From an uncultured Chloroflexia bacterium (lineage in GTDB: Bacteria > Chloroflexota > Dehalococcoidia > DSTF01 > JALHUB01), in the NCBI GenBank assembly GCA_963703345.1, contig OY969814.1, forward strand, positions 1,440,001 to 1,504,000: a stretch of DNA of 64,000 nucleotides, written 5' to 3'. Made by a program: the position numbers and the translations under genes. The notes beneath the pieces were generated by a model. That model searched no databases and was not told the origin of the DNA. It was given only the letters and a program-made list of their open reading frames with translations. The number at the start of each line of letters is the position of its first letter. The first letter of the stretch is position 1. Of this stretch, positions 5,841 to 32,531 are shown in pieces.

Positions 5841-5984
5841 ACGTCGCCGCTCCCTCGTCTCGCCTGTTGGTCGGTTCAATGCCGGTCGCGGCCGCGGCTC
5901 GCTTTCGCCGAGCAAGGTGAACGGGCCACCCGCGTTGACCGATTCGACGCACCGGATGCAGAACTGGTCCACGAAGACGGGCAG

Positions 5985-6081
5985 GTCGCCGGGTCCGAGA
6001 CGAGTTGCGGGGCTGCGCGGGTCATCGCTATACTTGGATGCGATGCGGGGGTAGCTCAGCGGTAGAGCTCCTGCCTTCCAA
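5985..6081 (+). repeat. 97-bp direct repeat copy 1 (tRNA promoter plus 5' half of tRNA-Gly); copy 2 at 24418-24514
   Basis: GTCGCCGGGTCCGAGACGAG...GCCTTCCAA identical except one base (6049 G vs 24482 C). Confidence 0.95.
6005..6034 (+). promoter_or_regulatory. Sigma70-type tRNA promoter (also present in the copy at 24438-24467)
   Basis: TTGCGG-N18-TATACT ending 10 nt before tRNA position 1. Confidence 0.65.
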
Positions 6082-6085
6082 GCAG
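6045..6085 (+). pseudogene. 5' half of tRNA-Gly(UCC), att-site remnant
   Basis: GCGGGGGTAGCTCAGCGGTAGAGCTCCTGCCTTCCAAGCAG identical to 30227-30267; no T arm follows. Confidence 0.95.
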
Positions 6086-6182
6086 CCCGGGCCCACCGCT
6101 GTTCTCGGGCCGTAATAATACGACCAAGACAACGTCAGTTATCCGCTATTCCTAGTCAACCCGAGGAGCCGTTCATTCTGCT

Positions 6183-7063
6183 TTGAGCACATGCCATGAC
6201 CGAAAAAAGAACGTTCCGAAAGCGGCCCTAGACCCGCTTAACCGCCTCGCCCATCACTTGGGGCAGGCTGTCCAACTCCTCGAACTGTCCACCAAAGGAA
6301 TATCCGCTCTCGCAGCCACGCCGCAGGCCCTTCGGGCCCTAGCTGCCGCAAAGCCTACCTCAGACGTCGTAGCCGCTCAAACACGGCTTGGCACCGTGCA
6401 GAACCTCGCACAACTCGCCCAGACTGAAGTCGACACCGGTTTTCCCCTACTCTTCGCCCAAGCAACCTCTCCCTTTGGGCGGACTTAGAGAACGGCCTCC
6501 GCACCTTTCTCGCCGCGTGGTTGCATCATGAGAGCAGCGCCAAGACCATCGAGGCGATCCAGAAGTTGAAGGTGTCCTTGGGGGAATACGAAGCGATGGA
6601 CTCCGACGAACGTTGCCTCTACATCATTGACCGCCTGCAACAAGAAATGGAATCACGCAATCGCCGTGGCATAGACAGATTCGAGTTGCTTTTCGCGGCC
6701 TTCGGCTTCGAAACTAGCCTTGACGAGCGCTTGAAGAGAGATCTTCTTGAGCTCTACTTTGTCCGCAATCTCCTCGTTCACCGCAGGGGCATCGCAGATC
6801 GCAAGTTCATCCAGTCGTGCCCCTGGCTCCGCCTCTCTGTCGGGGAACAAATCACCATAACGTCCGCAGCGTACAAGAAGTATACCCACGCGGTGCTCGC
6901 CTATGTGATCGAGCTCATTGTCCGTGTCGGCGCCCGGATCGGCATCACCCGCTCTCAACTCAGCGGCGTGCCCCACGCTTACCAGCCCCGTGAAGCCTCG
7001 CTCACGTCGGCTTCCTCGTCTAAGCCAGTGAAGCCCGTCGCGAAGAATCGCTCCCGCCCGTGA
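6183..7063 (+). pseudogene. HEPN-like protein, apparently frameshifted near 6465 (and possibly in the A6 run at about 6203)
   Basis: ORF 6183-6488 (...FPLLFAQAT) continues in the frame of 6521-7063 (LSLWADLENGLRTFLAAWLHH...); RNLLVH is an Rx4H HEPN motif. Confidence 0.65.
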
Positions 7064-7169
7064 CCCGTCAGCTTGGGTACCACGACCCGCACGTCAAGGG
7101 TTTCCGATGCTTGCGCCGCGTACCTGGTCCCGGCGAAACCTTGCCGACCCTCCACACTCCTGGTATCCT
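7035..7169 (+). repeat. Conserved ~130-bp noncoding hairpin/promoter element, copy A (copy B at 26412-26537)
   Basis: Shares AATCGCTCC-GCCCGTGA, CAGCTT-GGT, ACCCGCACGTCAAGGGT, CCGATG-TGCGCC; ends in TTGCCG-N17-TATCCT. Confidence 0.85.
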
Positions 7170-7199
7170 CGTCTTCGATCGTTCCGAGGCCAAGCACGA

Positions 7200-7343
7200 A
7201 TGTCACTCCTCGACATCTGGCGCCTGAACCCCGAACTCGCCGACAAGCGCGTCGATCAGATTATCGCCGTGGCGGGCTCCGGCAAGCTACGCGACCGCAG
7301 CGACGCCTCCCTCGAACTCCGCGAATTCCTCGCGACAGAGTGA
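7200..7343 (+). pseudogene. Truncated N-terminal fragment (47 aa) of a larger, probably restriction-endonuclease-like protein
   Basis: MSLLDIWRLNPELADKRVDQIIAVAGSGKLRDRSDASLELREFL lies behind a promoter and GAGG SD and ends abruptly; family assignment from recall only. Confidence 0.45.
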
Positions 7344-7415
7344 AACGGTCCTTGAACCGGATGGCGCTGGGGACGCCGGTCTGGAGGCCCGCACAAGCGC
7401 CGCCGCCCATTCCAT

Positions 7416-7444
7416 CGGGCCGGGCATTTCGCCCGGCCGTTTTC
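7416..7444 (+). terminator. Possible intrinsic terminator
   Basis: GGCCGGGC-ATTTC-GCCCGGCC followed by GTTTT. Confidence 0.45.
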
Positions 7445-7967
7445 ACCTCAGAGCGGCGACCATCTGCTTTCTAGGCAGAGGGTTTGCGCTCCTCTGCCGG
7501 CATTCGGCGGTCCTCGTTTGCCACTCACCGCTCTCTCCAGATACGCACGGGATGTTGGCGCCCCACAGGGACAATCTGAGATTGCGACTTGACTGCGCGC
7601 GTTTGCTCTTGACAGTCGGTGCGTGCCCGTTACAATTCGCACCATGGGGCAAAGCAGGGACGGCTGAGCCCCAAGCGCACCCCCGCCGCTGCGCGCTTCC
7701 AGTATCATCACCAGTCACGGTTCTCGCTCAGCCGTCCCTCTCATCCTAGAGCCGTCAGCAGCGCGCTCGTCAAGGAGAGTGCTAGGGACTTGACATGGGC
7801 TCACAACGGAGCGTCACCGGGGGACAACTTAAGGCTGCGGATGCGCTACGGCATCTAGCCTTGCCAGAGGGCGCGGTTCGTCTGACATCGTCAGCCAGTC
7901 CGCGTGAAACGCCTGATCAAGGCGATGGAGCTTCTTCTGGGCTATCTGATGAGTCAAGAGAGCAGGA

Positions 7968-8435
7968 ATGACAGCGGACAATCTCGCGCCGCCCGACCGG
8001 GAAGAATGGGCGAGCCTTTACGCCGCCTTCACCATTCTGCGCAAGGAGACGGACCGTGCGTTGTCGGACGGGCAGGTCACAATGTTTCCCCGCTCTTTTC
8101 CCCAAGTGGCCGTGCTGGCTCTCCTCGCGGAAGCCGAGCGCCCGCTGCCCGTGACGAGGATCGCGAGGTTGCTGCTGCAGGAGAGTTCCAGCGTCAGCAA
8201 CCTCGTTGATCGGATGTGCGAGAGGGGTCTTGTGGAGCGGGTGAAGGATCCCCGTGATCGACGTGTGGTCTTGGTGACGCTTACCGATCTGGGGCGCCGG
8301 GTGCACGACGATGGCCGGTCGTCGGCAGCGGCAGTCAGCAACGAGTTTTTTGGTGTCCTGTCGATGGAGGAGAGGGCGACCCTCAGAGACCTGCTTCAAA
8401 AGTTAACACGGCGCAACATTCGGCGCCTTGGCTGA
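7968..8435 (+). CDS. MarR-family transcriptional regulator
   Basis: SSVSNLVDRMCERGLVERVKDPRDRRVVLVTLTDLG wHTH/DRR motif. Confidence 0.92.
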   Translation: MTADNLAPPDREEWASLYAAFTILRKETDRALSDGQVTMFPRSFPQVAVLALLAEAERPLPVTRIARLLLQESSSVSNLVDRMCERGLVERVKDPRDRRVVLVTLTDLGRRVHDDGRSSAAAVSNEFFGVLSMEERATLRDLLQKLTRRNIRRLG

Positions 8436-8745
8436 AGGTCTCGCTGAACCCCGTATGCCTTATTCGTATATCCCCTCGGCGCGCTTAAGGATGAGCCTGA
8501 CGTGCTCGACCTCGGCCTCGTCGGTGTGGGGTGCCAAAGGCCCATCCGTATCTGGAGGGCAGCACTCGACCCTCTTCGTGATAGGCAGCGGGTCACTCGC
8601 ACGTTGGAAGTGTGTCATGAGGGACAACGCTAGCGCCGCGGGGACCGTACCGCACACCAAGACCTGATCGTGTCGGTCCTGAAATAACTGCCTGCGGCAA
8701 AAGCCCACATTGGCGGCTCCCCACGCGTAGGCTATAATCGCATCC

Positions 8746-11574
8746 ATGGACTCCCTCGGATTCGTCAAGAAGTGGGCCGCCTCCACCCAAAGCGAAAGTG
8801 CGGCTGCGCAGGAGCATTTCATCGACCTCTGCCACACGCTGAATGAGGGCACGCCCAATGATGACCCCAGCGGCGATTACTTCGCCTTTGAGAAGGGCGC
8901 CAAGCGGCCCGACGGCGACGGATTCGCGGACGTATGGCTCAAGAACCACTTTGCCTGGGAGTACAAAGGCAAACACAAAGACCTGGGCAATGCTTACAAG
9001 CAAGTTCAGACGTATCGCGAGGCGCTGGGCAACCCGCCGCTGCTGGTGGTCTGCGATATAGAACGATTCGAGGTCCACACCAACTGGACGAATACGGAGA
9101 CCTGGATCTACCGCTTTCGTAACGCCGACATCGCCCTGGACGAGCCGGTTGAAGTCACCACCTACGGCGGGCCCGCTGCCGACGCCCCGAAGCTCACCGC
9201 CCTGCAAGTCCTGAAGGCGCTTTTCGAGGAGCCGGAGCGCCTGAAGCCCCTGCGGACCACGGAGCAAATCACGCAGGAAGCCGCCAAGCTCTTCGGCCGC
9301 ATCACTGACGACCTGCGCAAATGGAAGGTGGAGGACATGCGCATCGCTCGCTTCGTAACGCGGGTGATGTTCTGCATGTTCGCAACGGACGTGGGCCTTC
9401 TGCCGCGCGAGACCTTCAGCGAGGTCATCAACGTCAACAAGGACGACCCCGCCGCATTCCGCGAGAACCTGTCGGCGCTGTTCGGCGTCATGGCGGAAGG
9501 CGGCAAGTTCCTCATGCACCCCGTTCCCCACTTCAACGGCCGCTTGTTTGAGGACAGCGACGTGCCCGACGAGATCCACGGCGAGCATGTGCGTGTGCTG
9601 GAAGACCTCAACGACCTCAACTGGGCGGATGTCGAACCGGTAATCTTCGGCACCCTGTTCGAGCGGGTCATCGACCCCGCTCAGCGCAGGCGGATCGGCG
9701 CGCACTACACGTCCCGCGCGGATATCGAGCTGATCGTTGAGCCGGTGCTGATGGCGCCCCTCAGACGCGAGTGGGACCAGATCAAGGCGGCGGCAGAGGA
9801 CCTGGCGGAGAACGCGGCTTCGCGGCGGCGCATCGCCCGAGCGCTGCAGACGTTCCATGAGCGGCTGGCAACCATCCGCGTCCTTGACCCAGCCTGTGGC
9901 TCCGGCAACTTCCTCTACGTCTCCCTGGCTCTTCTCAAGGCTCTCGAAAAAGAGGTTGTCGCCTTCGCGTCGTTGCATGACATTGCGCTCGTCCCGCGCG
10001 TTCACCCGCGCCAACTGATGGGCCTGGAGATCAGCGAGTACGCGCGCGAGCTGGCGTCCATAGTCATCTGGATAGGTTACCTGCAGTGGAAGCACCGCAA
10101 CGTGATGCCATTCGACGACGAGACTCCGATCTTGCAGCCGCTGGACCAAATCGCGTTCGGAGATGCCATCGTTGACCTCTCGGACCCCAGCCGGCCGCGC
10201 ATCCCTGAGTGGCCGGAAGCGGACGTAATCGTGGGCAACCCGCCGTTCCTCGGCGGCAAGCTCCTGCGCCGGCACCTGGGCGACGAATACGTTGACAAGT
10301 TGTTCGCCGCCTGGGACGGGCAGGTGGCTCGTGAGTCCGATCTCTGCTGCTACTGGTTCGAGCAGGGCCGCCGCGCCGTCGAAGCAGGCCGCGCCAGACG
10401 CGTGGGGCTTCTTGCCACTCAAGCGATCCGGGGCGGGGCCAACCGGCGCGTTCTGCAACGGATCAAGGAGACCGGCGACATCTTCTACGCTCAGGCCGAC
10501 CGCAAGTGGATACAGGACGGAGTTGCGGTCCGTGTCGCAATGATAGGGTTCGATGACGGCAGTCAACAGGAACGACTGCTGAACGAAGAGAAGGACGACG
10601 CGCCGGAACACGCCCTAGCACACGCCCGCCGCGTGTCCCAAATGAACGCCAACTTGACCTCTGCCGCGGACGTGACGAAGGCGCGACGCCTCGAAGAGAA
10701 TCTGGGTATTTCTTTCATGGGCGACACGAAGGTAGGGCCGTTTGAGATACCGGAGGCAAGAGCCAAAGAGATGCTGGGCAAGCCCAACCCGCACGGCAGA
10801 CCAAACTCAGATGTGGTGCGTCCTTGGGTGAACGGCTTGGATATCACGAGACGCCCACGGCACATGTGGATCATTGATTTCCCTCCCGGCACCAGCGAGA
10901 GCGAAGCTGCCCTCTACGAGGCGCCATTCGAGTACATCAAGAAATACGTTAAGCCCTTCCGAAAAAAGGCGCGGTCGGGGGACAGGACGGGAGTCGCGTG
11001 GTGGATACACCAGAGACCGCGACCGGAGTTGCGGGCGGCGCTCGAAGGGCTTCCACGGTATATTGCCACCACCCGCGTTGCGAAGTACCGCTCGTTTGTA
11101 TGGCTGACACCTGCCGTGTTGCCGGACTGCCGCCTTATCGCGTTTGCCCGCGCGGACGACTACTTCTTCGGCGTCCTGCATTCGCGGGCCGACGAAGTGT
11201 GGGCTTTGCTCCTAGGCAGCCAGCTTGAGTCGCGCCCGCATTACACGCCGACGACTTCCTTCGAGACGTTCTCGCTCCCGCACCCGACACCGAGTCAAAA
11301 GGCCGCGATCGCTGAGGCGGCGCGGGAACTCGATGAGCTGCGCCAGGCCTGGCTCAACCCGCCGGAGGACAACATTGCTCCCAGCGAGTTAAGGAAGCGC
11401 ACCCTAACCAACCTCTACAACCAGCGCCCCACATGGCTGGCAAACGCGCATCGCAAGCTGGACGAGGCGGTGTTCGCGGCATACGGCTGGCCGGAGTCGC
11501 CTGACGCGCTGTCGGACGCCGAAATCGTCAAGCGCCTGCTTGCGCTGAACCTGCAGCGGGAGGCGGTTGAGTAG
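8746..11574 (+). CDS. MmeI-like (type IIG/IIL) fused restriction endonuclease / N6-adenine methyltransferase
   Basis: N-terminal AD...EYK nuclease motif, GAHYTS, DPACGSGNF (motif I), GNPPF (motif IV), C-terminal RTLTNLYN...HRKLDEAV. Confidence 0.93.
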   Translation: MDSLGFVKKWAASTQSESAAAQEHFIDLCHTLNEGTPNDDPSGDYFAFEKGAKRPDGDGFADVWLKNHFAWEYKGKHKDLGNAYKQVQTYREALGNPPLLVVCDIERFEVHTNWTNTETWIYRFRNADIALDEPVEVTTYGGPAADAPKLTALQVLKALFEEPERLKPLRTTEQITQEAAKLFGRITDDLRKWKVEDMRIARFVTRVMFCMFATDVGLLPRETFSEVINVNKDDPAAFRENLSALFGVMAEGGKFLMHPVPHFNGRLFEDSDVPDEIHGEHVRVLEDLNDLNWADVEPVIFGTLFERVIDPAQRRRIGAHYTSRADIELIVEPVLMAPLRREWDQIKAAAEDLAENAASRRRIARALQTFHERLATIRVLDPACGSGNFLYVSLALLKALEKEVVAFASLHDIALVPRVHPRQLMGLEISEYARELASIVIWIGYLQWKHRNVMPFDDETPILQPLDQIAFGDAIVDLSDPSRPRIPEWPEADVIVGNPPFLGGKLLRRHLGDEYVDKLFAAWDGQVARESDLCCYWFEQGRRAVEAGRARRVGLLATQAIRGGANRRVLQRIKETGDIFYAQADRKWIQDGVAVRVAMIGFDDGSQQERLLNEEKDDAPEHALAHARRVSQMNANLTSAADVTKARRLEENLGISFMGDTKVGPFEIPEARAKEMLGKPNPHGRPNSDVVRPWVNGLDITRRPRHMWIIDFPPGTSESEAALYEAPFEYIKKYVKPFRKKARSGDRTGVAWWIHQRPRPELRAALEGLPRYIATTRVAKYRSFVWLTPAVLPDCRLIAFARADDYFFGVLHSRADEVWALLLGSQLESRPHYTPTTSFETFSLPHPTPSQKAAIAEAARELDELRQAWLNPPEDNIAPSELRKRTLTNLYNQRPTWLANAHRKLDEAVFAAYGWPESPDALSDAEIVKRLLALNLQREAVE

Positions 11575-11745
11575 CTAAGGCCGGGCCTGGCGCTCGAGGA
11601 GGCGAATTCGTCGGGCGGCCCGACCTTGGGCTGGGATGGCGAACCTAGCCATCAACATCCACACTTAGTGTCTGTTTGTCCCTTGGTGCCGGTCAACCGC
11701 TTACGAATGGAACTCACTTCGTAACCGCGGCGTTGTCCAAGATCA

Positions 11746-12786
11746 TCACAGAACATCAAGAGAACCATCCTGCTCCGGGTGGCTCTCTTCGGCGGGATGT
11801 CCGCCGAACCGCTCTTGCACACGCGCCAGTATTTCGCCTGCCTCCCGCATCATCCTCGAGAGGAGTTCTTCGCAGCTTACGACGTCGTCAACGAGCCCGA
11901 TGGACTGGCCAACCGGGAACGGGCTGCACTCGACGTCGCCGGTCTCCCAGGCCACGCTCTGACGCTGGCCGTCGATCAAGGGGATGATCTCTTCCAAACC
12001 GCCTCGTCGGGCTTCGACCTCGATCACCTTCTCGACCTGCGCGTTCCTCAGGGCCCGCATCTGTAGGTTGATGCTCCGGCAGATCATGACCGTGTCATTC
12101 TCGTGCCGCTGGACGAGCTCTTCTTTGATGCGCTGGTGCGCGAGACACTCGGTCGTAGCTATGAACCGCGAGGCCATCATCACGCCCTCGGCTCCCAGCA
12201 CCATGGCCGCCGCCATCCCGCGTCCATCGGCGATGCCGCCCGCCGTGACGACGGGGATGCCCACCGACTGGCAGATCCGCGGCGTGAGCAGCATTGTCGT
12301 GACGTCTTCGTTCAGGGGATGCCCGCCCTCTTCGAAGCCGGCGGCGATCACGGCGTCGTAGCCCGCCTCCTCGGCGTGCATGGCGTGCTTCACCGCGCCG
12401 ACCTTGTGTATCAGCTTGACGCCCGAGTCCCCCGCCCGGCGGATGGCGTCGGGTCCCAGGTACTTGTCCAGAGGCGCGCCTGATATATCGATGGCGCATA
12501 CCTTCTCCTCACAGCAGACGGCGAAGTACCCTTGGTGCAGGTCCTTGGCGATGCGGACGGACGGCAAAAGCGTCAGGTTTACGCAAAACGGCTTGTCTGT
12601 GAGCTGTCTCGTCCTGGCAATGGCCTGGCGTAGCGCGTCCGCGGAGTCGTAGTTGCCGGCGGTCAAGTTGCCGAGGCCGCCGGCGTTGGATACGGCGGCG
12701 CAGAGCTCCGGCTTCGCCAGCCACATCATCGCGCCGCAGAGGATCGGATACTTGATGCCGAACAGCTCCGTGACCCTTGTCTTCAT
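11746..12786 (-). CDS. Nitronate monooxygenase / FabK-like flavin oxidoreductase
   Basis: TELFGIKYPI, AVSNAGGLG, GFEEGGH, AGGIADGRG. Confidence 0.9.
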   Translation of the reverse strand: MKTRVTELFGIKYPILCGAMMWLAKPELCAAVSNAGGLGNLTAGNYDSADALRQAIARTRQLTDKPFCVNLTLLPSVRIAKDLHQGYFAVCCEEKVCAIDISGAPLDKYLGPDAIRRAGDSGVKLIHKVGAVKHAMHAEEAGYDAVIAAGFEEGGHPLNEDVTTMLLTPRICQSVGIPVVTAGGIADGRGMAAAMVLGAEGVMMASRFIATTECLAHQRIKEELVQRHENDTVMICRSINLQMRALRNAQVEKVIEVEARRGGLEEIIPLIDGQRQSVAWETGDVECSPFPVGQSIGLVDDVVSCEELLSRMMREAGEILARVQERFGGHPAEESHPEQDGSLDVL

Positions 12787-12967
12787 CAGTCTCCTCCTCG
12801 CTTCGATCACTTGAGAAGCGGTCTCATCCTATTGCCTTCGCCGCATGGACACAATCGAAGGGGCACCGGCGGCTGCGCAAGACCCAATCGACTGCTTAAC
12901 GTATGATATTGCCGGCAGGACCCTGACAAATACCGCAGGCCACAATGATGCTAGGAGTCAGAGAGCC

Positions 12968-14002
12968 ATGATGGTAGTGATGAAGAAAGACCACAGCCCG
13001 CAGGAGTTGCAGGCGGTACTTGACCACCTGGAGGAAGGTGGGCTTTCCGGTCATAAGATCATTGGCGTCGAACGGACCGTCGTCGGCGTCGTCGGCCTGA
13101 TCTACCCTGAGCTTTCCGATGAGCTGAGGGCCTTCCCGGGTGTCGACCAGACGGTGCCCATCTCCAAGCCGTACAAGCTGGCGAGCCGCGAACTCAGGCC
13201 GCACGACACCATCGTGAAAGTGGGCAACGTCGAGATAGGCGGCGGCTCAACCGTCGTCATCGCTGGCCAGTGCTCGGTCGACACGCCGGAGCAAATGCTG
13301 GAGACGGCACAGGCGGTGAAAGCGGCCGGCGGGCACCTCCTTCGCGGCGGCGCCTTCAAGCCGCGGAGCAGCCCTCACGCCTTTCGCGGCCTGGTCGAAG
13401 AGGGGCTGCGCATCCTGGCGGAGGCGGGCGCGGCGGTCGGATTGCCGACGGTCAGCGAAGTCATGGACCCCCGCGATGTCGAGATCGTCGCCGAGCACGT
13501 CGACCTCCTGCAAATCGGCACCCGCAACGCCCAGAACTACTATCTGCTGGACGAGGTCGGCAACTGCGACAAGCCCGTGTTGCTGAAGCGCGGCATGGCC
13601 TGCTCCGTCGAGGAGTGGCTGCTCTGCGCCGAGTACGTTTTGGCGCGCGGCAACCAGCAGGTGATCCTTTGCGAACGCGGCATCCGCACCTTCGAGACCG
13701 GCACGCGGTTCACCCTCGACGTCGCCGCCATACCGCTGGCGAAGCGCCTCAGCCACCTTCCGGTCGTCGCCGACCCAAGCCACGGGACGGGCCGCTGGTA
13801 CCTGGTCGAGCCGATGTCCCTGGCGTCGGTGGCGGCGGGCGCGGACGGCCTGATGGTCGAGATCCACCCCGATCCGGACCGCGCGCTCTCCGATGGCGCC
13901 CAGAGCCTGACGTTCGCCAACTTCGCCCATTTGATGGAGCGCGTCAGGGTCGTGAGCGAGGCGGTTCAGCATCCCTTCGCTCGCGTCTTGGAGCGAGACT
14001 AG
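12968..14002 (+). CDS. aroF: DAHP synthase type I-beta with N-terminal regulatory domain
   Basis: AGQCSV, GGAFKPRS, QIGTRN, LLKRG, LCERG, DPSH motifs. Confidence 0.93.
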   Translation: MMVVMKKDHSPQELQAVLDHLEEGGLSGHKIIGVERTVVGVVGLIYPELSDELRAFPGVDQTVPISKPYKLASRELRPHDTIVKVGNVEIGGGSTVVIAGQCSVDTPEQMLETAQAVKAAGGHLLRGGAFKPRSSPHAFRGLVEEGLRILAEAGAAVGLPTVSEVMDPRDVEIVAEHVDLLQIGTRNAQNYYLLDEVGNCDKPVLLKRGMACSVEEWLLCAEYVLARGNQQVILCERGIRTFETGTRFTLDVAAIPLAKRLSHLPVVADPSHGTGRWYLVEPMSLASVAAGADGLMVEIHPDPDRALSDGAQSLTFANFAHLMERVRVVSEAVQHPFARVLERD

Positions 14003-24417: not shown

Positions 24418-24514
24418 GTCGCCGGGTCCGAGACGAGTTGCGGGGCTGCGCGGGTCATCGCTATACTTGGATGCGATGCGGCGGTAGCTCAGCGGTAGAG
24501 CTCCTGCCTTCCAA
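24418..24514 (+). repeat. 97-bp direct repeat copy 2, containing a second tRNA-Gly 5' half (24478-24514); attL of the 5.7 kb element
   Basis: GCGGCGGTAGCTCAGCGGTAGAGCTCCTGCCTTCCAA; identity to the tRNA stops right after the anticodon loop; G5-to-C change. Confidence 0.95.
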
Positions 24515-24681
24515 ACAGTTGTTCGCAAGCGCTGTCCGTCAAACTCGCGAACTCTCACCGAAAACCCCACAGTTATCGACTGTCCCATAGTGTCTTCCAG
24601 CGACACCTCGATTTCGGCAAGTGGCGTCTCATCCACGCAAACATAACTGACCCTGCTATTTGTCCGTACAATGCTGGCCCC

Positions 24682-24710
24682 TTGACCCTGCCCTCTCGCA
24701 GCCTTAACCT
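24682..24710 (+). promoter_or_regulatory. Sigma70-type promoter for cargo genes
   Basis: TTGACC-N17-TAACCT. Confidence 0.5.
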
Positions 24711-24763
24711 GCCACTCACTGAGGCGCCATATCCGCCATGTCGTTGCCCAGAAAGGTCAACAA

Positions 24764-25162
24764 TTGGACCGCGGCACAATAGCCCTACTCGCTATCGGGG
24801 CGGGTTTCCTGCTCTTAACGGCCTTCCTATCGAACCTCCCCCAGCTACTGCGCGGCATCTCCCGTCTCGGCGCGCTACTCGAAGACACGCTCTTCCTCGC
24901 CGACGCCCATCAATTCGAACAGGAACTTGACAATCTCTTCTCTGGGTTCGACCCCGGCACCGAGAGAGCAAACACCATCCAAACCGTGAACGCCGAGCGA
25001 AAACGCGCTGACGATGCCTTGACGGACGCTCTCCCGCCCGAATACCGCTGCCCCTACTGCTCCGGAGTCATGCGGAGGCGCACCGGAAGACACGGTCCCT
25101 TCTATGGCTGCAGCAACTACCCGCAGTGCCGTTATACCAAGGATTCACCCCTCACATCTTGA
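24764..25162 (+). CDS. Membrane-anchored protein with topoisomerase-type C4 zinc finger
   Basis: N-terminal hydrophobic helix; CPYCSGVMRRRTGRHGPFYGCSNYPQC. Confidence 0.8.
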   Translation: MDRGTIALLAIGAGFLLLTAFLSNLPQLLRGISRLGALLEDTLFLADAHQFEQELDNLFSGFDPGTERANTIQTVNAERKRADDALTDALPPEYRCPYCSGVMRRRTGRHGPFYGCSNYPQCRYTKDSPLTS

Positions 25163-25163
25163 A

Positions 25164-26399
25164 ATGAGAGAGAAATACCAACGCCGCCTTGCCGAACTCC
25201 GCGACTTGCTCTCCCAACTTCACACGGAGCGCGTGCAATTTGATGCCTACGTGGCCCAGGCCCGGAGGGGATTCCAGGCTTATCTATCTGACCAAAAGCT
25301 AGATTTGCACGCGTCCCGCCAGCTACTGACGTCCCACGAAAAGCAATTCCGCGACAAACAGGAAGCCGTTGAGAAACGGCTTCGCGCGAGAGAAGACGCC
25401 CTTGAGCAACTCACCCAACAGAAGACAGAAGGCTTCCCCTGGCTAGCCCAAGCGTATGCCGAGTTTCTCCGCTTGCAGGATAAGAAAGACGAATCATCCT
25501 TGAGAACCAAAACACGCCCGGCCATCAAGGCTGCGGACACCCTTAGGGAAGCATCACGGGCAAAGCGAACGGCTGAGAAGAAGGCAAAGGTCCTCGAGTA
25601 TGTACTCAGATACTACGAAGCACTCTTCCCTTGGCTTTCCGACCTTAGAGGCGAGGACGTTGATGACCTTCTAATCGCCATCACGACGGAGAAACAGCAA
25701 GAGGCTGACACAGAAGTCGAAGACGCCGCACGGCAATGGCTCACAGAGGCAGAGTATTCCTCCTTACCGGTTGCCGAGAAATGCCAGCTTGCGCTAGACC
25801 GCTATTGGAAAGGCAGAAAGCGCCCTTGGCAGCTCGGTAGGGATTACGAGAGATATGTCGGCTTCCGCTACGAAGAGCAGGGCTTTGCAGTGTACTACCA
25901 AGGCATCGTCGAGGGGCTAGAGGATCTAGGTCGCGATCTGTTAGCCACCAAAGGCAATTGTGTAGATGTTGTTCAGTGCAAGTACTGGTCCAAAGACAAA
26001 ACGATACACGAGAAACACGTCAATCAGCTCTTTGGCACGGCGATGGCCTACCGGATAGATCATCCGGATAAAGAGGTCATTCCGGTCTTTTACACTTCCA
26101 CCTGTCTGTCGCCTAGGGCCAAGCAGTTCGCTGACATGCTCAGTGTAACGTATTTCGAGAATGCCCCTCTGTCCCCGTACCCCTGCATTAAATGCAACGT
26201 CTCACGCAAGGATGGCACGAAGATATACCATTTGCCCTTCGACCAACAGTATGACCGCACTATCATCGAACAAGAGCGACTTGAGTGCTACGTTGAGACC
26301 GTCGCAGAGGCCGAAGCTCTGGGCTTCCGCCGAGCATTCCGCTGGAGGGGTGGACAGACTACTGCTGGATCTTCCGAGGCACCAAACCCTGGCCACTGA
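25164..26399 (+). CDS. Coiled coil + Mrr-like PD-(D/E)xK restriction endonuclease with small C-terminal metal-binding-like domain
   Basis: GRDYERYVG...DLGRDLL...VVQCKYW (Mrr-type QxK); IKCNVS...IYHLP...EAEALGFRRA tail. Confidence 0.82.
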   Translation: MREKYQRRLAELRDLLSQLHTERVQFDAYVAQARRGFQAYLSDQKLDLHASRQLLTSHEKQFRDKQEAVEKRLRAREDALEQLTQQKTEGFPWLAQAYAEFLRLQDKKDESSLRTKTRPAIKAADTLREASRAKRTAEKKAKVLEYVLRYYEALFPWLSDLRGEDVDDLLIAITTEKQQEADTEVEDAARQWLTEAEYSSLPVAEKCQLALDRYWKGRKRPWQLGRDYERYVGFRYEEQGFAVYYQGIVEGLEDLGRDLLATKGNCVDVVQCKYWSKDKTIHEKHVNQLFGTAMAYRIDHPDKEVIPVFYTSTCLSPRAKQFADMLSVTYFENAPLSPYPCIKCNVSRKDGTKIYHLPFDQQYDRTIIEQERLECYVETVAEAEALGFRRAFRWRGGQTTAGSSEAPNPGH

Positions 26400-26411
26400 G
26401 CCTCTAAGGGG

Positions 26412-26537
26412 CCGTCGCAGAAATCGCTCCGGCCCGTGAACTGCAGCTTCGGTTCCCGCACCCGCACGTCAAGGGTCCCGATGGCTGCGCCACGCGCTTC
26501 ACGCGCCCTTGACCCGCTACCCAGTTACCCCTACCCT
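26412..26537 (+). repeat. Conserved noncoding hairpin/promoter element, copy B; candidate single-strand origin or ssDNA promoter
   Basis: GTCAAGGG(26468)...CCCTTGAC(26513) inverted repeat whose right arm is the -35 of TTGACC-N17-TACCCT. Confidence 0.75.
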
Positions 26538-26647
26538 CAGGTAAGTGAACATCCGCCACCAGAGCCCGCGCGAGTACGCTGCCACAACGCGAGCTCAACA
26601 AGAAACCGCCGCCTCATCTATCTGAAGAAGAGGGGTACACTACACGC

Positions 26648-27238
26648 GTGTCTGGCGATAGTACCGACGACCTCAGGCCAACTATTAAGGTCACAGCCGT
26701 CATACTCCTGGAGGTCCTGGGATCCGTTCTGCTGGCAGTCGCAGCTCCATGGAAGCAACATCGCCAACTGATCGTAGTCGGAACCTTCGACCAGCTACTT
26801 GGGGTATTCCTTCTTGCATGGCCTGACCTGGAAAACCAAGCTCTCAGGGCATTTACGGTAAGCCGCCGCGCCTGGGCCAATTTCGTACGTTGGTACCCGA
26901 CAGCTTGGCGACGAGCACGAGAGGAAGTCAAATGGTGGTTCCGGCAACGCGCTGAGACGGCGGCCAACTGGTATCGCCAGCTCAGAGGCCGGCCACGATC
27001 AATGACCGTCAGACTTCCGCCAGCGACGCTTCACCTTAGCGCTGGCGTATCTGCCACGTTAACACGCGGCGGAACAATAGCTGATAGGCTCCAACGCCTC
27101 GAAAACGACGTCGCCCGACTCCCAGCTCAATGGCGAAATGACATGATCAATCTGCGCGATAGGCGCGTCCAACTCCGCTGGTATGGAGTGCCATTAATCC
27201 TGACCGGGGTCGTTCTTCTCAGTTGGGCGACCTGGTAG
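26648..27238 (+). CDS. Hypothetical membrane protein (element cargo)
   Basis: Three hydrophobic segments; GAGGGG SD; downstream of the element promoter. Confidence 0.6.
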   Translation: MSGDSTDDLRPTIKVTAVILLEVLGSVLLAVAAPWKQHRQLIVVGTFDQLLGVFLLAWPDLENQALRAFTVSRRAWANFVRWYPTAWRRAREEVKWWFRQRAETAANWYRQLRGRPRSMTVRLPPATLHLSAGVSATLTRGGTIADRLQRLENDVARLPAQWRNDMINLRDRRVQLRWYGVPLILTGVVLLSWATW

Positions 27239-28250
27239 CCCAGCTTCGTACAGCGGGCACCTTGCCAGGCTCGGCTTCCCGTCCTTTAGCCGCGCCTTCT
27301 AGCATCGTCCGGTGCTTAGATTTCAATCTTGACTCACCGCTCTTCACCGTTTCCAGCAAGAAGCCAATGTCGCCCCCATCGTCCTTAACGATCATAGCCG
27401 CAGTGGGACCACACGTAGTCTTAAACCACTTTCGCCTCTGTTCGAGAGTCGGCAAAGGTTTCGGAGCATACACCCCCTGTTCTTTCTCAGCTGAGCCTAC
27501 CAGTGCCTCGAACCAGCCCAAGCGTGGGCAGCGCCTCGGCTTCTCATCAACTGTCCGATCCACGAACTCGACCATCTGCAGCAGCCGTTCTGCCCACACC
27601 TTTCCCCAACGCTCAAGAACGAGCCTCTTCAGCATTCTTTCCGCTGCGTCGTCACGTACTTGGAGCTCCCATCTCGTAGCCGGAATGAGCCCTCCGCTTT
27701 GCTCGTCCTTGTCATAGACTCGCAACTTCTGCCTTGAGCCCTTGCCCCCTCCATATACGGTCATCCCGCCATGAAGCGTTTCGTCACGAGTCCAGTTCCC
27801 TTCGAGGATGTGTGACGACCAGTCTCCCCTATCCAGTGCTTCCCATACGTCCTTGGCTCGAACAATCTTGTTGAAGTCGTCCGCTGCCAAGTCGATTCGC
27901 GAGGCCTTCGCCCCTTTTGCGTCGAGCCACCCTAGAAGACCGCGCATCTGCGCTTCCTCCATCGACTGGCAGATATCGCCCTTTAGCTGCACATGGATTT
28001 CCGGCCTGTGTGCCGACCACATGATGGCCGCGCCACCAGGCGCGATTCTCTGATTCTCATAGTAGGAATTCCCCCGCTCAGCTGTTGTGAAATCGAACCC
28101 GATGTATCCTGACACCACCCTCTCGACTTCCCGCAGCTCCACTTCCCAGAGGCTGGGCTCGAGCCAATCAACAGAGAACACCAATGGATTTTCTGCCCCC
28201 CTGTTAGTACGCTGGGGGCAGCTGGCCGCGTCGCGATCAGCTTCGCTCAT
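27219..28250 (-). CDS. Rep_trans-family replication initiator / MOBT relaxase
   Basis: SVDWL, SRIDLAADD, TVYGG, LRVYDK (catalytic Tyr), RWELQ motifs. Confidence 0.9.
   Translation of the reverse strand: MSEADRDAASCPQRTNRGAENPLVFSVDWLEPSLWEVELREVERVVSGYIGFDFTTAERGNSYYENQRIAPGGAAIMWSAHRPEIHVQLKGDICQSMEEAQMRGLLGWLDAKGAKASRIDLAADDFNKIVRAKDVWEALDRGDWSSHILEGNWTRDETLHGGMTVYGGGKGSRQKLRVYDKDEQSGGLIPATRWELQVRDDAAERMLKRLVLERWGKVWAERLLQMVEFVDRTVDEKPRRCPRLGWFEALVGSAEKEQGVYAPKPLPTLEQRRKWFKTTCGPTAAMIVKDDGGDIGFLLETVKSGESRLKSKHRTMLEGAAKGREAEPGKVPAVRSWATRSPN
28194..28220 (-). other. nic site hairpin (oriT / double-strand origin)
   Basis: Minus strand TGCCCCCAGCGTACTAACAGGGGGGCA matches the C-run/CTAACA/G-run nic of ICEBs1 and Tn916, inside the 5' end of the relaxase gene. 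Confidence 0.85.
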
Positions 28251-28489
28251 CGCTTCCGCCGCCTTGCTTTCACGGACGCCAATGCTAGGCGCGCGAAATG
28301 CGCCTTGCGCGCCGCCTCGGCGCGCAAAGCGCGTTCGTTCGCCGGGAGCTTGCCCTCTGGGTCAATCAGGCGCTCGAAGCGCGATTCGAAGGCCGCTCGT
28401 GCGGGAGCAGTCGCTGCCGCCCTATCTCCCGTACCAGCCCACCGAGTGTATGACGCTATTCGCGCTCTGAGACTCACTTCGCCGCTCAT
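28247..28489 (-). CDS. Small basic conserved hypothetical protein of integrative elements
   Basis: SLRARIASYTRWA..DR.AATAPARAAF..RFE..IDPEG; ATGA overlap with rep. Confidence 0.75.
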   Translation of the reverse strand: MSGEVSLRARIASYTRWAGTGDRAAATAPARAAFESRFERLIDPEGKLPANERALRAEAARKAHFARLALASVKARRRKR

Positions 28490-28588
28490 CGTCCAACCAG
28501 CCCACAAACCCAATCGGCCACCTTCGACATGCATCGAAGATAGCCGACGCCCTGACCTAGCGGCGCATCGAAAACGCCCGTTATTCGA

Positions 28589-29176
28589 TCAGACCTGTTT
28601 TACGCTCGCCACCCCCTCTGCCAACTCCTGAGGCAAACCGTTCAAGCAGTATGGGCAGTACTTTGACTCGTGTGCTCTTTTCCCCCGCGCCGCTCCCGCC
28701 CTCGCCTTCACACGCTCATCCATCTCTCCCCAAGTATCTACGACTCGCCTGATCCACTTGATATTGCACGCCTTCAGCATCGTCACAATCAGGTCGTAAT
28801 CAGTCACCCCCTCTTTCTCACGAAGATGAGCAATTAGCATGTCCACCCCCGACCCCTTCCTCCTGCCGGACCGCACCGGTCCTGCTTCCGCGATCGAGGC
28901 CAACAACTCTTCTTCCCGCCCCTTCGCTTTGGCCCAATTCGATACTATCTCCCATTCTCCGTTCTCGTTGAGCCCCGCCACCAGGAAATTCCCCGATACG
29001 CTCGCCACCCAAAGCGAGAATCGCCATAGAGGCAGCGCTTGAATCTCCTCCAACGTGAACTCTGTCGGCTCCTCAAGCGACAGCGTCTTGTTGAAGTATT
29101 TCTTACTCTGAATCGGCAGGAGTTTCCGCCTCAGCTGAATCCGGTAGCGAATGAACAGGCCGTCCGACCTAGTCAC
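28589..29176 (-). CDS. Hypothetical protein coupled to the integrase
   Basis: GTGA overlap with integrase stop; C-terminal CPYC. Confidence 0.65.
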
Positions 29177-30120
29177 AGCCTGTCTCCTAAGCCTAGACGT
29201 CGATGCGCCGCTTGAGCCCGCTCGTCAGCTGTCGAAGCTGCGTACCGCTGAACCATCGTTCGCGAGCGCCAGCCAGTGAGACGCATTAGGTCGCCCTCCG
29301 TACCGCCCTGCGAGAGCCAATCATGGGCGAACGTATGCCGCAACTGATGAGGGTGAATGTCACCCAATCCAGCCTGCCGGCCACGCTGCTTTATCATCTG
29401 GTAAATGCCCGTGTCGCCAAACTGACCCTTATGACCCACCCATAGCCAAGGTGATGACGCTGAAGGATGCTGCTTGCGCTTCCTCAGATAACGGTCAAGG
29501 GCCTTCACAGCCTTCGCTCCGATAGGTAGCACCCGCTCCCGTCGCCCCTTCCCAAGAACCCGGATCAAGCCCCTATCTAGGTCAACGTCGCTATTCTCCT
29601 CATCTTTGGCGTTGTACCGCAAACCGCCAATTTCCGCTCGACGCGCACCGGTGTCGATGAAAATGCGCAGTATCGCCGTGTCGCGCCGGTCCTCCAAACT
29701 GCCGCCCTTTTCACACGTTGCCAGCAGCGCTTTCAACTCCTCCTCGCGCAGCACAGGCGGAGGGTTCTCAGGGACCCGAGGCGGCTTCATCTTTGCCATC
29801 GGTGACTCCCTAACCTCGCCCTCTTCATCCAGCCACTTGAAGAACGATTGTAGTCCGCGATATCGATTGTTCGCTGTCGCAGGCTTCCACCGCTCCAACA
29901 AGTAGGCAATGAAACTCTCAACATGCTCTCGCCGAATCTTCGCTACCTCTTGCGGCATTCCCTGATCAGCTAGGAATCCGGCCAACTGCCGCGCGCTCTC
30001 CAGGTACGTGTCAATCGTCCTTGCAGACAGATTCTCCGCCCGTAGATGGCGCCCAAAGCTCTCGATGTTACCTACGATATCGCCCTGTGCTATACTTCTT
30101 GCGGCTATGGACTCGCGCAT
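29173..30120 (-). CDS. Tyrosine recombinase / integrase
   Basis: TGARRAE (R), GKGRRER (K), HPHQLRH (HxxR), LTGW...MVQRY (Y); AGGAG SD; TTGACG-N18-TATAAC promoter at 30186-30157. Confidence 0.95.
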
Positions 30121-30226
30121 CTGCCACTCCTATCGCTAGCTCTCGCACTTGCGCTAGTTATAGGGTATTCGAGCGGTGTTCGTCAAGAGGAAATCAGTTA
30201 GAGACTGTAGCCAGCTTCGAAAGCGA

Positions 30227-30301
30227 GCGGGGGTAGCTCAGCGGTAGAGCTCCTGCCTTCCAAGCAGGATGTCGCGGGTTCGAACCCCGTCCCCCGCTCC
30301 A
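30227..30301 (+). tRNA. tRNA-Gly(UCC), intact, CCA encoded
   Basis: Cloverleaf: GCGGGGG/CCCCCGC acceptor stem, CCTGC-CTTCCAA-GCAGG anticodon arm, GGTTCGAACC T loop, TCCA end. Confidence 0.97.
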
Positions 30302-30313
30302 ATTCGCCAGATA

Positions 30314-30342
30314 CGAAGCCGAGCGAATCGCCCGGCTTTCTT
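30314..30342 (+). terminator. Hairpin/terminator after tRNA
   Basis: AAGCCGAGCG-AAT-CGCCCGGCTT followed by TCTT. Confidence 0.55.
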
Positions 30343-30353
30343 GATGGAGTAGC

Positions 30354-32216
30354 ATGAGCGCAGCCCAAGTCAATGCCACCGAGGGCGAGGCCGTCCGAAA
30401 GAACATCCGCAACATCGCGATCATCTCCCACGTCGACCACGGCAAGACTACGCTGGTCGACGCAATGCTGCGGCAGACCGGCGTCTTCCGCGAGAACCAG
30501 GAGGTCGTCGATCGGGTGATGGACTCGAGCGACCTCGAACGCGAGAAGGGGATCACGATTCTGGCCAAGAACACGTCGGTGCGGTTTGGCCGGTACAAGA
30601 TCAACATCGTCGATACGCCCGGACATGCCGACTTCGGGGGTGAGGTGGAGCGCACGCTGAAGATGGTGGACGGCGTGCTGCTGCTGGTCGACGCCAGTGA
30701 AGGGCCGCTGCCGCAGACGCGCTTCGTGCTGAAGAAGGCGCTGGAACTGGGACTGCCGCCGATCGTCGTGATCAACAAGATCGACCGGAAGGACGCGCGG
30801 CCGCAGGAGGTGCTGGACGAAATCTACGACCTCTTCATCGACCTCGACGCGCACGAGTCCCAGCTCGATTTTCCTGTGCTGTACACGATCGCGCGCGGCG
30901 GCGTCTGCCGACTGACGCCCGACGGCGAAGACCATCGCCTCGAGCCGCTGTTCAAGGAGATCATCCGGTCGATTCCGGCGCCGCGCTATCAGCCGTCGAT
31001 GCCGCTGCAGATGCTGGTGCTGAATCTCGATTACTCGGATTTTGTCGGACGCCTGGCGGTGGGACGTGTCGTCAACGGGCGCCTGCGCGCGAAGCAGGAC
31101 GTGGCGCTTGTGCGCGAGGGCGGCAGCATCGATCGCGCCCGGGTAACCTATCTGTACACATTTGAGGGGCTGGAGCGCGTGGAAGTGACCCAGGCAGGGC
31201 CGGGAGAGATCGTGCAACTGGCGGGATTCGACGAGGTGAACATCGGGGACACGATCACTGACGCAGATGACCCGCGGGCGCTTCCGCGTGTGATTATCGA
31301 CGAGCCGACCGTGAGCATGATGTTTTCGATCAACACGTCGCCCTTCGCGGGTCAGGAGGGACGGTTCGTAACGTCGCGAAACCTGAAGGACAGGCTGGAG
31401 CGGGAGGTGCTCACGAACGTGGCGCTGCGCGTCGAGCCGGGCGACTCGGCGGATAACTTCAAGGTGTCGGGCCGCGGTGAGTTGCAGATGGCGATCTTAA
31501 TCGAGACGATGCGGCGCGAAGGGTTTGAGCTGTCGGCCAGCAAGCCGCAGGTGATAACCCGCGAAATCGATGGCGTAGTGCACGAGCCCATGGAGCACCT
31601 GGTGATCGACTGCCCGGATGAGTACGTGGGTATCGTGTCGCAGAAGATCGCCATCCGCAAGGGGCGCATGACGAACATGGTGAACCACGGCACGGGCCGG
31701 GTAAGGCTGGAGTTCCGCATCCCATCGCGAGGACTCATCGGCTTCCGCAGCCAGTTCCTGACGGACACGCGTGGCACCGGTCTACTGAACCACCTGTTTG
31801 ACGGGTATAAGCCATGGCAGGGAGACATCGAGCATCGCACGAACGGCGCGCTGGTGGCGGATCGCACGGGCGCGGTGATGGCGTACGCTATGGAGCAGGC
31901 GCAGGAGCGCGGGGAGATCTTCGTCGAGCGGGGGGAGCGCGTGTACGAGGGGATGATCATTGGGGAGAACGCGCGTGAGAGGGATATCAACCTCAACATC
32001 ACGAAGGAGAAGAAACTCACCAACATCCGCTCGTCAACATCGGATATTGCGGTGCAACTGCTGCCGGTGCGGCGCATGTCGCTAGAGCAGGCGCTGGAGT
32101 GGATCGCCGAGGACGAGATGCTGGAGGTAACGCCGAAGAGCTTGCGACTGCGAAAGCGGCTGCTCGCGGCAAGCGAGCGAGCAAGCGAGCGGGCGAGGGA
32201 CGCGCGGCGGGACTAG
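30354..32216 (+). CDS. typA: Translational GTPase TypA/BipA
   Basis: [42 protein letters not shown]. Confidence 0.97.
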
Positions 32217-32266
32217 GAAGTGCGGGCTCGTGTTACTATCCTGACGAAAGCAGAAGGAGGGACACG

Positions 32267-32347
32267 ATGGGACGCAAGGATAAGGGCGGCAAGAAGGTCA
32301 AGAAGCCAAAGCAGGAGAAGATCAAGAAGGCGCCGAACGCGAAGTAA
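32267..32347 (+). CDS. 26-aa Lys-rich peptide
   Basis: AAGGAGG SD, MGRKDKGGKKVKKPKQEKIKKAPNAK. Confidence 0.6.
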   Translation: MGRKDKGGKKVKKPKQEKIKKAPNAK

Positions 32348-32486
32348 GGCGATGTCGATATCCTGGACGACGCAGCTGACAAGACCGGTCGAGATGGAGC
32401 CCGGGCGACATGCGGGAGCGGAGCCTGGCGGAAGATCCGGCGTCATCCTAGGTTTATCGGCTGCACTTGAGTCGGTTACTCCGTTT

Positions 32487-32531
32487 CTTCCAAGCAGGAT
32501 GTCGCGGGTTCGAATCCCGTCCCCCGCTCCA
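32487..32531 (+). pseudogene. 3' half of tRNA-Gly(UCC), att-site remnant
   Basis: CTTCCAAGCAGGATGTCGCGGGTTCGAATCCCGTCCCCCGCTCCA equals 30257-30301 except one T-loop base. Confidence 0.95.

Follow-up and report, generated by a model that had tools for sequence, protein, structure and literature searches.

The only tRNA-Gly(TCC) gene of this genome is flanked by copies of its own halves, an arrangement that most probably arose through tyrosine integrases of opposite orientation recombining in its anticodon loop. One essential, single-copy tRNA would have taken insertions from both directions, and a definable integrase clade for the rarer direction offers a direct test of how an integrase reverses its orientation on the symmetric anticodon stem-loop.

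The four tRNA-Gly pieces

ARAGORN calls a sole tRNA gene in the window (the whole 64,000-nucleotide stretch analysed), tRNA-Gly(TCC) at 30227–30301, which is single-copy among the 54 tRNA/tmRNA calls of the 2.28-Mb, one-contig genome. Two 5' halves and one 3' half accompany it; the four pieces described in an earlier note are thus real and lie where it placed them, and its spacings of 18433, 5749 and 2230 bp agree with ours. The 5' half at 6045–6085 is identical to the intact gene at 41 of 41 positions and that at 24478–24518 at 39 of 41, the differences falling at tRNA positions 5 and 38. The 3' half at 32487–32531 matches at 44 of 45 positions and starts exactly at tRNA position 31; it carries a T at position 59, as do 22 of the 23 matching copies from loci L001–L059. 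Judging from the fold, what all four pieces share is exactly the 7-nt anticodon loop, CTTCCAA, which supports the note's proposal of crossover in that loop and stacking from both sides. The heptamer alone is undiagnostic (10 occurrences in the window, on both strands), and it is the 41–101-bp repeats that are diagnostic (BLAST E 1e-12 to 1e-42 against the genome). We refer to the three segments as S1 (18.4 kb), element A (5.7 kb) and the typA unit (2.2 kb); the 26-kb array has only one integrase gene.

5985–6044, + strand: host tRNA upstream region, copy 1, with promoter-like TTGCGG-18-TATACT (6005–6034); 100% identical to 24418–24477
6045–6085, + strand: displaced tRNA-Gly(TCC) 5' half, core CTTCCAA at 6075–6081; attL of S1
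24418–24477, + strand: host upstream region, copy 2; right end of S1
24478–24514, + strand: second displaced 5' half, core 24508–24514, with a G5C change; attL of element A
30227–30301, + strand: intact tRNA-Gly(TCC), core 30257–30263
30315–30340, + strand: hairpin 3' of the tRNA (fold z −1.76; alignment)
32487–32531, + strand: displaced 3' half, core 32487–32493; attR of the typA unit

The identical 60 bp upstream of the two 5' halves are unlike the region upstream of the intact gene. Their TTGC...TATACT layout also precedes the intact tRNA in seven relatives (G001, G003, G004, G005, G007, G008 and G013), and copy 2 matches the relatives' native upstream region a few bases further than copy 1. 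The best reading of these data is that the working tRNA is a mosaic, as the note had suspected, its 5' half probably supplied by element A and its 3' half by the typA unit. The hairpin, common to many 3'-side units in alignment, is likely a terminator; a consensus scan for promoters and terminators gave nothing above chance and left it uncalled.

Element A, S1 and the 5' side

Element A comprises the following features, between its attL and the intact gene.

24515–24590, + strand: left arm, motif CAGTTATC at 24570; 87% identical to the G002 arm
24764–26399, + strand: cargo, a Zn-ribbon ORF and an Mrr-like restriction endonuclease (25104–26399) (PF01396, PF04471)
27219–28250, − strand: Rep_trans rolling-circle initiator (PF02486, E 8.7e-22; phrog_453)
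28247–29176, − strand: two small conserved ORFs of 95 and 195 aa (66% and 49% in the G002 element)
29173–30120, − strand: tyrosine integrase, 315 aa, divergent from the tRNA (PF00589, E 1.9e-28)
30068–30096, + strand: promoter-like TTACCT-17-TATACT, the −10 preceded by TG; antisense to the integrase, within its 5' end

The integrase frame is open and full-length, with the R, H-x-x-R-H and Y motifs present, and the 95-aa ORF matches phrog_2842. Element A has the layout of a 5'-fragment tDNA island: a 5' fragment lies upstream of the intact tDNA in the same orientation, and a tyrosine integrase sits inside the interval, whose 5749 bp fall in the 2–200 kb range. Beyond the integrase and Rep_trans, the element A ORFs scanned against Pfam and PHROGs include no mating-pair genes. 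Nor were capsid, terminase or primase-helicase genes found (Pfam on scanned ORFs, PHROGs on element A), so that it classes as neither prophage nor PICI. The corresponding empty site, host upstream region joined to an intact gene, is present in G007, G008 and G003, which are other species rather than strains. The 5'-empty state that the note had called for therefore exists, as host promoter, intact tRNA and typA in G007 and without 5' halves in G008 and G003; the joint from 6081 to 32494 that it also anticipated was not seen.

The integrase belongs to a clade of Dehalococcoidia integrases (FastTree support 0.95), and all nine sampled members are divergent from a tRNA-Gly, -Pro, -Lys or -Arg gene. 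In six of the nine, a 5' fragment with this arm motif behind it was found; the other three have none within the stretch fetched. Divergence from the tRNA is the geometry of 5'-half replacement. Related integrases at 47–57% are co-directional at tRNA-Gly(TCC), -Val and -Met genes, several of them with 3' fragments, and integrase genes stand on both sides of one tRNA in G270 (Gly) and G051 (Lys). The arm family of element A also occurs at this genome's tRNA-Gly(CCC) locus, in company with a relic that retains integrase codons 1–57 only. The promoter-like element at 30068–30096 is kept in this relic and in G002, and we infer that it is the promoter of the rebuilt tRNA; it was uncalled by the consensus scan and is not evident in five of seven more distant clade members checked.

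S1, on the outer side of element A, opens with an arm of the same family.

6082–24417, no strand assigned: segment S1, integrase-less cargo (Pfam)
6086–6156, + strand: left arm, motif CGCTG...CAGTTATC at 6136; aligns with 12 other arms
7968–8435: MarR (Pfam)
8746–11574: MmeI-type RM (Pfam)
11746–12810: nitronate monooxygenase (Pfam)
12845–14002: DAHP synthase (Pfam)
14365–17052: acyl-CoA ligase-GNAT (Pfam)
17455–17967: C_GCAxxG_C_C (Pfam)
19838–23395: adenylate-cyclase/AAA/TPR (Pfam)

The 12 aligned arms lie behind tRNA-Gly 5' halves, and the same motif is found behind the 5' halves of tRNA-Pro and tRNA-Lys elements; it is probably an integrase arm site. PF00589 has no match in S1. The MmeI gene is 85% identical to one within G002's integrase element, and a pair of nitronate monooxygenase and DAHP synthase genes lies downstream of the tRNA-Gly array in G006. 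On its right, S1 ends in the host promoter copy and not in an A-type right arm, and the origin of so exact a copy is not explained by simple decay.

The typA unit and the descent of TypA

BipA, a ribosome-assembly factor, is treated as core in most bacteria. Here its gene lies in the segment between the intact tRNA and the displaced 3' half.

30354–32216, + strand: typA/bipA, 620 aa (Pfam BipA_C; TIGR01394 above cut-off)
32267–32347, + strand: 26-aa lysine-rich ORF, with copies in relatives
32390–32486, + strand: right arm, the last 19 integrase codons and stop (32392–32451), then 35 bp to the core

This is the genome's only full typA/bipA. The 26-aa ORF has no Pfam or PHROG match; copies 79–100% identical are found in G002, G004, G006, G007 and G008, and a second one in this genome. 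The integrase tail is of a second type, and the two ends of the array carry arms of two integrase types only ~30% identical. Over 96 nt the right arm is ~88% identical to the end of a truncated integrase in G013:C130, and the same holds in G002:C6; this arm recurs in units whose cargo differs, and it matches the ends of integrases. Because the 2.2-kb segment closes with this 19-codon remnant of another integrase, we read it as a decayed 3'-replacing element. It is CIME-like in that its genes for integration and transfer are gone but for that tail and, judged by sequence, in retaining attL and attR (cores 30257 and 32487), the right arm being conserved. A typA-type arm directly attached to a full-length integrase was not found, the two nearest integrases being truncated; among 401 genomes of the class, candidates for its parent are 55–83% relatives, all but one without a tRNA within 1.5 kb. 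The note's picture of a modular array is qualified in that only the middle segment bears an integrase; the outer two have none and may be fixed.

TypA scores above the family cut-off in 10 of the 18 family genomes, leaving about half of them without it; absence in G003 is uncertain because its tRNA-Gly(TCC) ends the contig. A contig end truncates one of the 11 typA copies; the other ten begin 53–308 bp past a tRNA-Gly gene or 3' half, and wherever the flank is assembled the gene lies behind tRNA-Gly(TCC) or (CCC) pieces. The protein is 81% identical to that of family f4 and 57–59% to those of f2 and f5, whereas RpoB is 73–75% identical to all three alike; monophyly of the genus is rejected for TypA (AU p 0.007) but has support 1.0 for RpoB. 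Thus, typA/bipA was likely gained by horizontal transfer in this family, as att-flanked cargo. The monophyly tests used fast LG+G4 trees and omitted 5 of the 33 rows, namely the G019 fragment and four outgroups. They do not reject f4 monophyly for TypA (p 0.23), which keeps the donor lineage from being specified; the source appears f4-like, and we claim nothing narrower. For the same reason we dropped a nesting of f1 typA inside f4 that came from a quick tree. The 98% identity of typA DNA between G016 and G019, across families, was set aside as weak evidence: the G019 piece is terminal on a contig of 5.9 kb, and the RpoB of G016 is partial and long-branched, with 7% contamination in that genome. 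Within G000, G008, G007 and G002 vertical descent would fit the TypA tree, and the typA unit may therefore be long fixed. In f4, typA is often downstream of tRNA-Pro(TGG); since none of the 13 f4 loci fetched showed a 3' fragment flanking the gene, we claim no typA cassette there. According to the accessible text of PMC8313970, BipA is important in E. coli for assembling the 50S subunit in the cold.

Proposed history, alternatives and known systems

The layout suggests that a 3'-replacing element would have come first, bringing typA, and would then have lost its integrase apart from the 19 codons seen, persisting as the 2.2-kb CIME-like unit. S1 would next have arrived on the 5' side of the gene; it keeps an arm of the 5'-replacing family and ends, without an integrase, in host promoter and 5' half copy. 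Element A, with integrase and Rep, would have arrived last, into the rebuilt gene, and would now give the tRNA its 5' half and probably its promoter too. Each arrival would have displaced the older units away from the gene, the orientation of its integrase deciding whether to the left or to the right. We further predict that the half at 24478 has mutated since its displacement, G5C being the change observed. A recombinant tRNA using this half would have a C5·C68 mismatch in its acceptor stem, which may lock element A in; given the G5C change, A could therefore leave cleanly only with S1. GGA accounts for 12% of Gly codons in long ORFs.

The note had also envisaged several excision products from one core. 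Excision of the middle element alone would leave the mismatched stem, and no excision junction, empty site or circle occurs in the contigs of five public runs, whose fragmentary coverage makes this no evidence either way. Seven public runs matched, none containing half the sequence words; joints were assessed within 20 kb, so that 6075 and 30257 never fell in one stretch, and no core-to-core joint is among those shown for X1, X2, X4 and X5 and for the X1–X4 contigs.

Integron cassette arrays consist of small integrase-less units in variable order, and the present array resembles them in this. One could accordingly regard the locus as an active two-way cassette platform in which S1 and the typA unit, each keeping core and arm, are still moved in trans; we find this doubtful. 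Movement is suggested by typA occupying the Gly(TCC) or the Gly(CCC) site depending on the genome, with a tandem pair in G016 and a place as last of four units in G008, by the small ORF preceding typA in G004 and following it in G006, and by a BadF-type unit, 93% identical, between TCC halves in G008 and between orphan Gly halves elsewhere in G000. Yet the (fragmentary) public-run contigs show neither circles nor junctions, decay or loss has affected many of the distal halves (G002, G006, G016), a single ancient insertion would account for typA at the same position in four related species, and the relatives' arrays have no dedicated, fixed integrase alongside. Unlike in integrons, the data are explained without IntI or attC-type hairpins, the site being a tRNA half plus arm, and the typA unit descends from an element with its own integrase. 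A bolder extension, to which we give no greater credence, is that the family's tRNA-Gly genes are live two-way platforms on which BipA circulates as a 2-kb accessory cold-adaptation cassette. If so, units without an integrase would still be exchanged in trans between the TCC and CCC genes by integrases of both orientations, and decay of a spare tRNA half could lock an element in place, since its excision would then deprive the cell of its only GGA-reading tRNA.

For S1, local rearrangement could have duplicated promoter and 5' half, cargo being gathered later by other means. The perfect identity of the 60-bp copies, although congeners clearly differ there, points this way, as do the GC content of S1 (0.62, close to the flanks) and the lack, at its place, of the DUF3089 gene that adjoins the tRNA in G002, G003 and G008. 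We nonetheless judge it unlikely, as S1 opens with a family arm whose distance from the core is as expected, and G006, G011, G016 and G017 also have 5' segments that are without an integrase and end in promoter-like sequence of their own. That one composite island (24508–32487 or 6075–32487) split the host tRNA and brought a replacement together with typA would account for the same order in G002 (front half, A-type element, intact tRNA, typA), and co-transfer of accreted elements is reported in the accessible text of PMC5704250. Against it, typA stands behind the tRNA without element A in G007 (promoter, tRNA, typA) and G008, other families have A-type integrases but no typA with them, and the end arms belong to the two dissimilar integrase types; it is very improbable. 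Misassembly of strain variants, which the note had raised, is hardly credible: the genome is metagenome-derived and no available read or contig spans the junctions, but it is one 2.28-Mb contig with 0.59% contamination, each tRNA piece has distinct flanks, and run X1, possibly the source sample, contains near-identical pieces of S1, of A and of the two flanks, all at a similarly low depth. Genomes assembled independently share the architecture, as does another locus of the present genome, and relatives vary in content (no front and four back halves in G008, four front halves in G006, different cargo behind an 87% identical integrase in G002), these empty and alternative states making misassembly unlikely. 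Serial two-sided insertion remains our preferred reading.

5'-fragment islands, tandem accretion and CIMEs are already published kinds; two-sided loading and typA as island cargo were not found in the literature searched (main texts, few of them from subscription journals). Small tyrosine-integrase elements at tRNAs, newcomers that push older ones outward and scattered partial tRNAs are shared with Prochlorococcus tycheposons, whose islands, in the accessible text, have a proximal and a distal end; the likeness drawn here is one of layout (bioRxiv 10.1101/2020.12.28.424599). Dehalococcoides, of the same class, likewise has tandem islands at one stable-RNA gene, 15 of them without integration modules, but as described in the accessible text these use serine recombinases at tmRNA, lie downstream only and carry rdhA (PMC3146451). 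In ICE/IME/CIME accretion, too, decayed elements keep att ends, newer ones insert beside them, excision patterns are complex and a small element has a Rep_trans-type initiator; the tandems in the accessible text of that work are one-directional at 3' ends, whereas the present array has grown both ways and its CIME-like unit carries the gene for a ribosome-assembly GTPase (PMC5704250). Replacement of the 5' half is uncommon, at 159 of 3919 Islander islands (PMC4383910), and displaced-5'-fragment tDNA islands are also credited to Zhao and Williams 2002. Like element A, the Islander examples combine a tyrosine integrase, anticodon-loop crossover and a 5' fragment upstream of the rebuilt gene; unlike them, a 5'-replacing element and a 3'-side unit here share one gene (PMC4383910). 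Because two of the three units are without an integrase, Islander's integrase filter would not resolve separate islands here, and the outer units would be missed by any island finder requiring one integrase per island.

The tRNA-Gly(TCC) locus and its segments

All four tRNA-Gly(TCC) pieces claimed by an earlier note proved to be present where it had placed them: displaced 5' halves (front halves) at 6045 and 24478, the intact gene at 30227 and a displaced 3' half (back half) at 32487. The intact gene is the sole copy in the 2.28-Mb single-contig genome (G000). The front halves match the tRNA to positions 41 and 37, respectively, and the back half begins at position 31, so that what all pieces have in common is the anticodon loop. 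Upstream of the two front halves lie the same 60 bp, whose promoter-like layout in relatives stands before the intact tRNA-Gly gene. The cores delimit three segments:

6075-24508: S1, the 18.4-kb upstream segment
24508-30257: element A, with an Mrr-like nuclease, a Rep_trans initiator, two small ORFs and a 315-aa tyrosine integrase
30257-32487: the typA unit, with a hairpin, typA/bipA, a 26-aa basic ORF and a 96-bp right arm

We conclude that the locus is a real tRNA integration hotspot made of known parts. Published work reports 5' fragments at 159 of 3919 Islander islands and 125 tandems (PMC4383910), considerably rarer recombination at the 5' side (PMC6563490), accretion and cis-mobilizable elements, or CIMEs (PMC5704250), tandem Dehalococcoides islands, some with and some without integration modules (PMC3146451), tycheposons (bioRxiv 10.1101/2020.12.28.424599) and piggy-back prophages (PMC1635311). 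Less familiar are two features, namely two-sided loading by a definable integrase clade in reversed orientation and typA/bipA as att-flanked cargo. A literature search, with most subscription papers outside its scope, returned nothing relevant on two-sided loading or on typA on islands.

S1 contains no integrase by the PF00589 profile, which among its six matches in the genome hits only that of element A within the window. Its left end is an A-family arm (sequence beside the core, a putative integrase arm site) and its right end repeats the host promoter exactly. The cargo of S1 recurs at other tRNA-Gly positions in relatives (the MmeI gene within the element of G002, nmo and dahp in the G006 array downstream of tRNA-Gly), and G006, G011, G016 and G017 likewise have upstream segments that lack an integrase and end in promoter-like sequence of their own. 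Within S1, 150 bp (7418-7568) match sequence that directly follows the 3' end of tRNA-Gly in several relatives, as well as other places in G000; the tRNA half itself is absent. A 38-bp imperfect inverted repeat (7535-7572 and 8520-8557) flanks a MarR gene, both its arms matching a dispersed repeat family of the genome, and a membrane/pilin-like ORF with a 140-bp internal direct repeat (18716-19053; 82%) has a paralogue at G000:1510143-1510826.

Upstream of the tRNA, two tandem acyltransferase-SGNH (OafA-like) genes (1835-5840), whose starts share a 95% identical 300-bp repeat, are conserved in the genus, and further paralogues adjoin tRNA-Gly(CCC) arrays. In G002, G003 and G008 a DUF3089 gene separates oafA from the tRNA; it is absent here (5841-5984), and G000 has just a 61% paralogue elsewhere.

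A divergent integrase clade and its use of the tRNA

The element A integrase is directed away from the tRNA, and the element has a GC content of 0.574 vs 0.63-0.64 in its flanks. An 87% identical integrase in G002 has the same geometry with other cargo, and relatives at E 1e-70 or better were found in 25 of the 401 class genomes searched. In a tree of 38 integrases with a tRNA ≤400 bp upstream, it falls into a clade of nine (support 0.95), all divergent from the tRNA: Gly(TCC) (five), Pro(GGG) (two), Lys(CTT) and Arg(TCG). In six of the nine a 5' fragment precedes the arm motif CGCTG...AGTTATC; no such fragment was found in the fetched stretches of G032, G025 and G133. Most of the remoter relatives have the same direction as their tRNA (Gly(TCC), Val or Met), and 3' fragments accompany several of them; in G000 the A-family arm also precedes 3' halves of tRNA-Val(TAC), reversed relative to the tRNA. 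The divergent clade, its co-directional relatives and these reversed arms are together consistent with one integrase family using a symmetric stem-loop in both orientations. Five tandem tRNA-Val(TAC) back halves lie at C1:1252833-1259685, spaced 0.8-2.5 kb, and orphans at 1919358-1921910, 1981943, 1026456 and 2126189; each bears the A-family arm, reverse to the tRNA.

Positions 30068-30096 resemble a promoter and are conserved both in G002 and in a relic at the G000 tRNA-Gly(CCC), of whose integrase codons 1-57 alone remain. This candidate promoter, not called by a consensus promoter scan, probably drives tRNA-Gly(TCC).

The front half at 24478 carries a C at tRNA position 5. Recombinants with it would have C5·C68 in the acceptor stem, and those with 6045 or 30227 full pairing; ARAGORN still calls the C5·C68 variant as a tRNA. 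Given this mismatch and the 12% share of GGA among Gly codons in long ORFs, we predict that element A leaving alone would probably be costly and leaving together with S1 harmless. No excision junction or circle was seen in public contigs, which are fragmentary.

Ancestry of typA as cargo

The typA/bipA gene is the sole full copy in the genome. The right arm of its unit consists of an integrase's final 19 codons plus the stop codon, is ~88% identical to the ends of truncated integrases which in G013 and G002 adjoin a tRNA-Gly back half, and is of a type common to units with other cargo; no intact parent integrase was found in 401 class genomes. The unit fits the CIME definition given in PMC5704250. 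BipA acts in 50S assembly at low temperature (PMC8313970).

TIGR01394 scored above cut-off in 10 of the 18 family genomes, and the eight without it include ones 97, 95, 93 and 91% complete. Ten of 11 typA copies start 53-308 bp behind tRNA-Gly or its back half, of TCC type in G000, G002, G006, G007 and G008, CCC type in G004, G013 and G016 (two copies in tandem) and hybrid in G005; the eleventh, in G001, has lost its start at a contig end and is followed by a CCC half. TypA is 81% identical to that of family f4 and 57-59% to those of f5 and f2, whereas RpoB stands at 73-75% against each of the three and puts f3 in the sister position. In the TypA tree, genus monophyly was rejected (AU p 0.007) and f4 monophyly was not (p 0.23). 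Taken together, these identities and tests point to an f4-like source as the likely origin of typA, with at least one move between genera; within G000, G008, G007 and G002 it may simply have been inherited. The tRNA-Gly(CCC) array of G004 (L008:542-3943) runs cold-shock domain gene, small basic ORF, back half, typA, back half, possibly hinting at a cold-adaptation theme.

Variation among relatives and other loci

The earlier note had proposed comparing relatives for presence/absence variation, and content does vary. G008 (single contig) has no front halves and four back halves, with typA outermost; G007 has promoter, tRNA and typA, the arrangement expected with both S1 and element A absent; G006 has four front halves followed by back halves; and in G003 native upstream sequence runs into the tRNA gene, which lies at a contig end. 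Front and back pieces surround one tRNA at Gly(CCC) in G000 and G016, Gly(TCC) in G006, G011 and G023, Lys(CTT) in G051 and Ala(TGC) in an actinomycete (L110), and integrase genes flank the tRNA on either side in G270 and G051; these loci were picked for fetching, so their number gives no frequency.

The G000 tRNA-Gly(CCC) locus (C1:2237080-2241657, 2277373, 8436) has the same pattern as the TCC locus: a front half with an A-type arm, a decayed A-like element (a reversed typA 3' fragment, aa 557-594, 89%, and the integrase remnant), the intact gene and two back halves. Orphan tRNA-Gly halves, distant from all intact Gly genes, lie at C1 positions 1028568, 1034301, 1062705, 1308653, 1910843, 746512 and 763168; a BadF/DUF2229 gene between two of them is 93% identical to one in the G008 tRNA-Gly unit. 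A third element type (L002:1517-12260, L040), with a 338-aa integrase and a Replic_Relax relaxase, is present at both the TCC and the CCC tRNA-Gly of one genome, G008, and its own right arm recurs in an integrase-less 2-kb unit.
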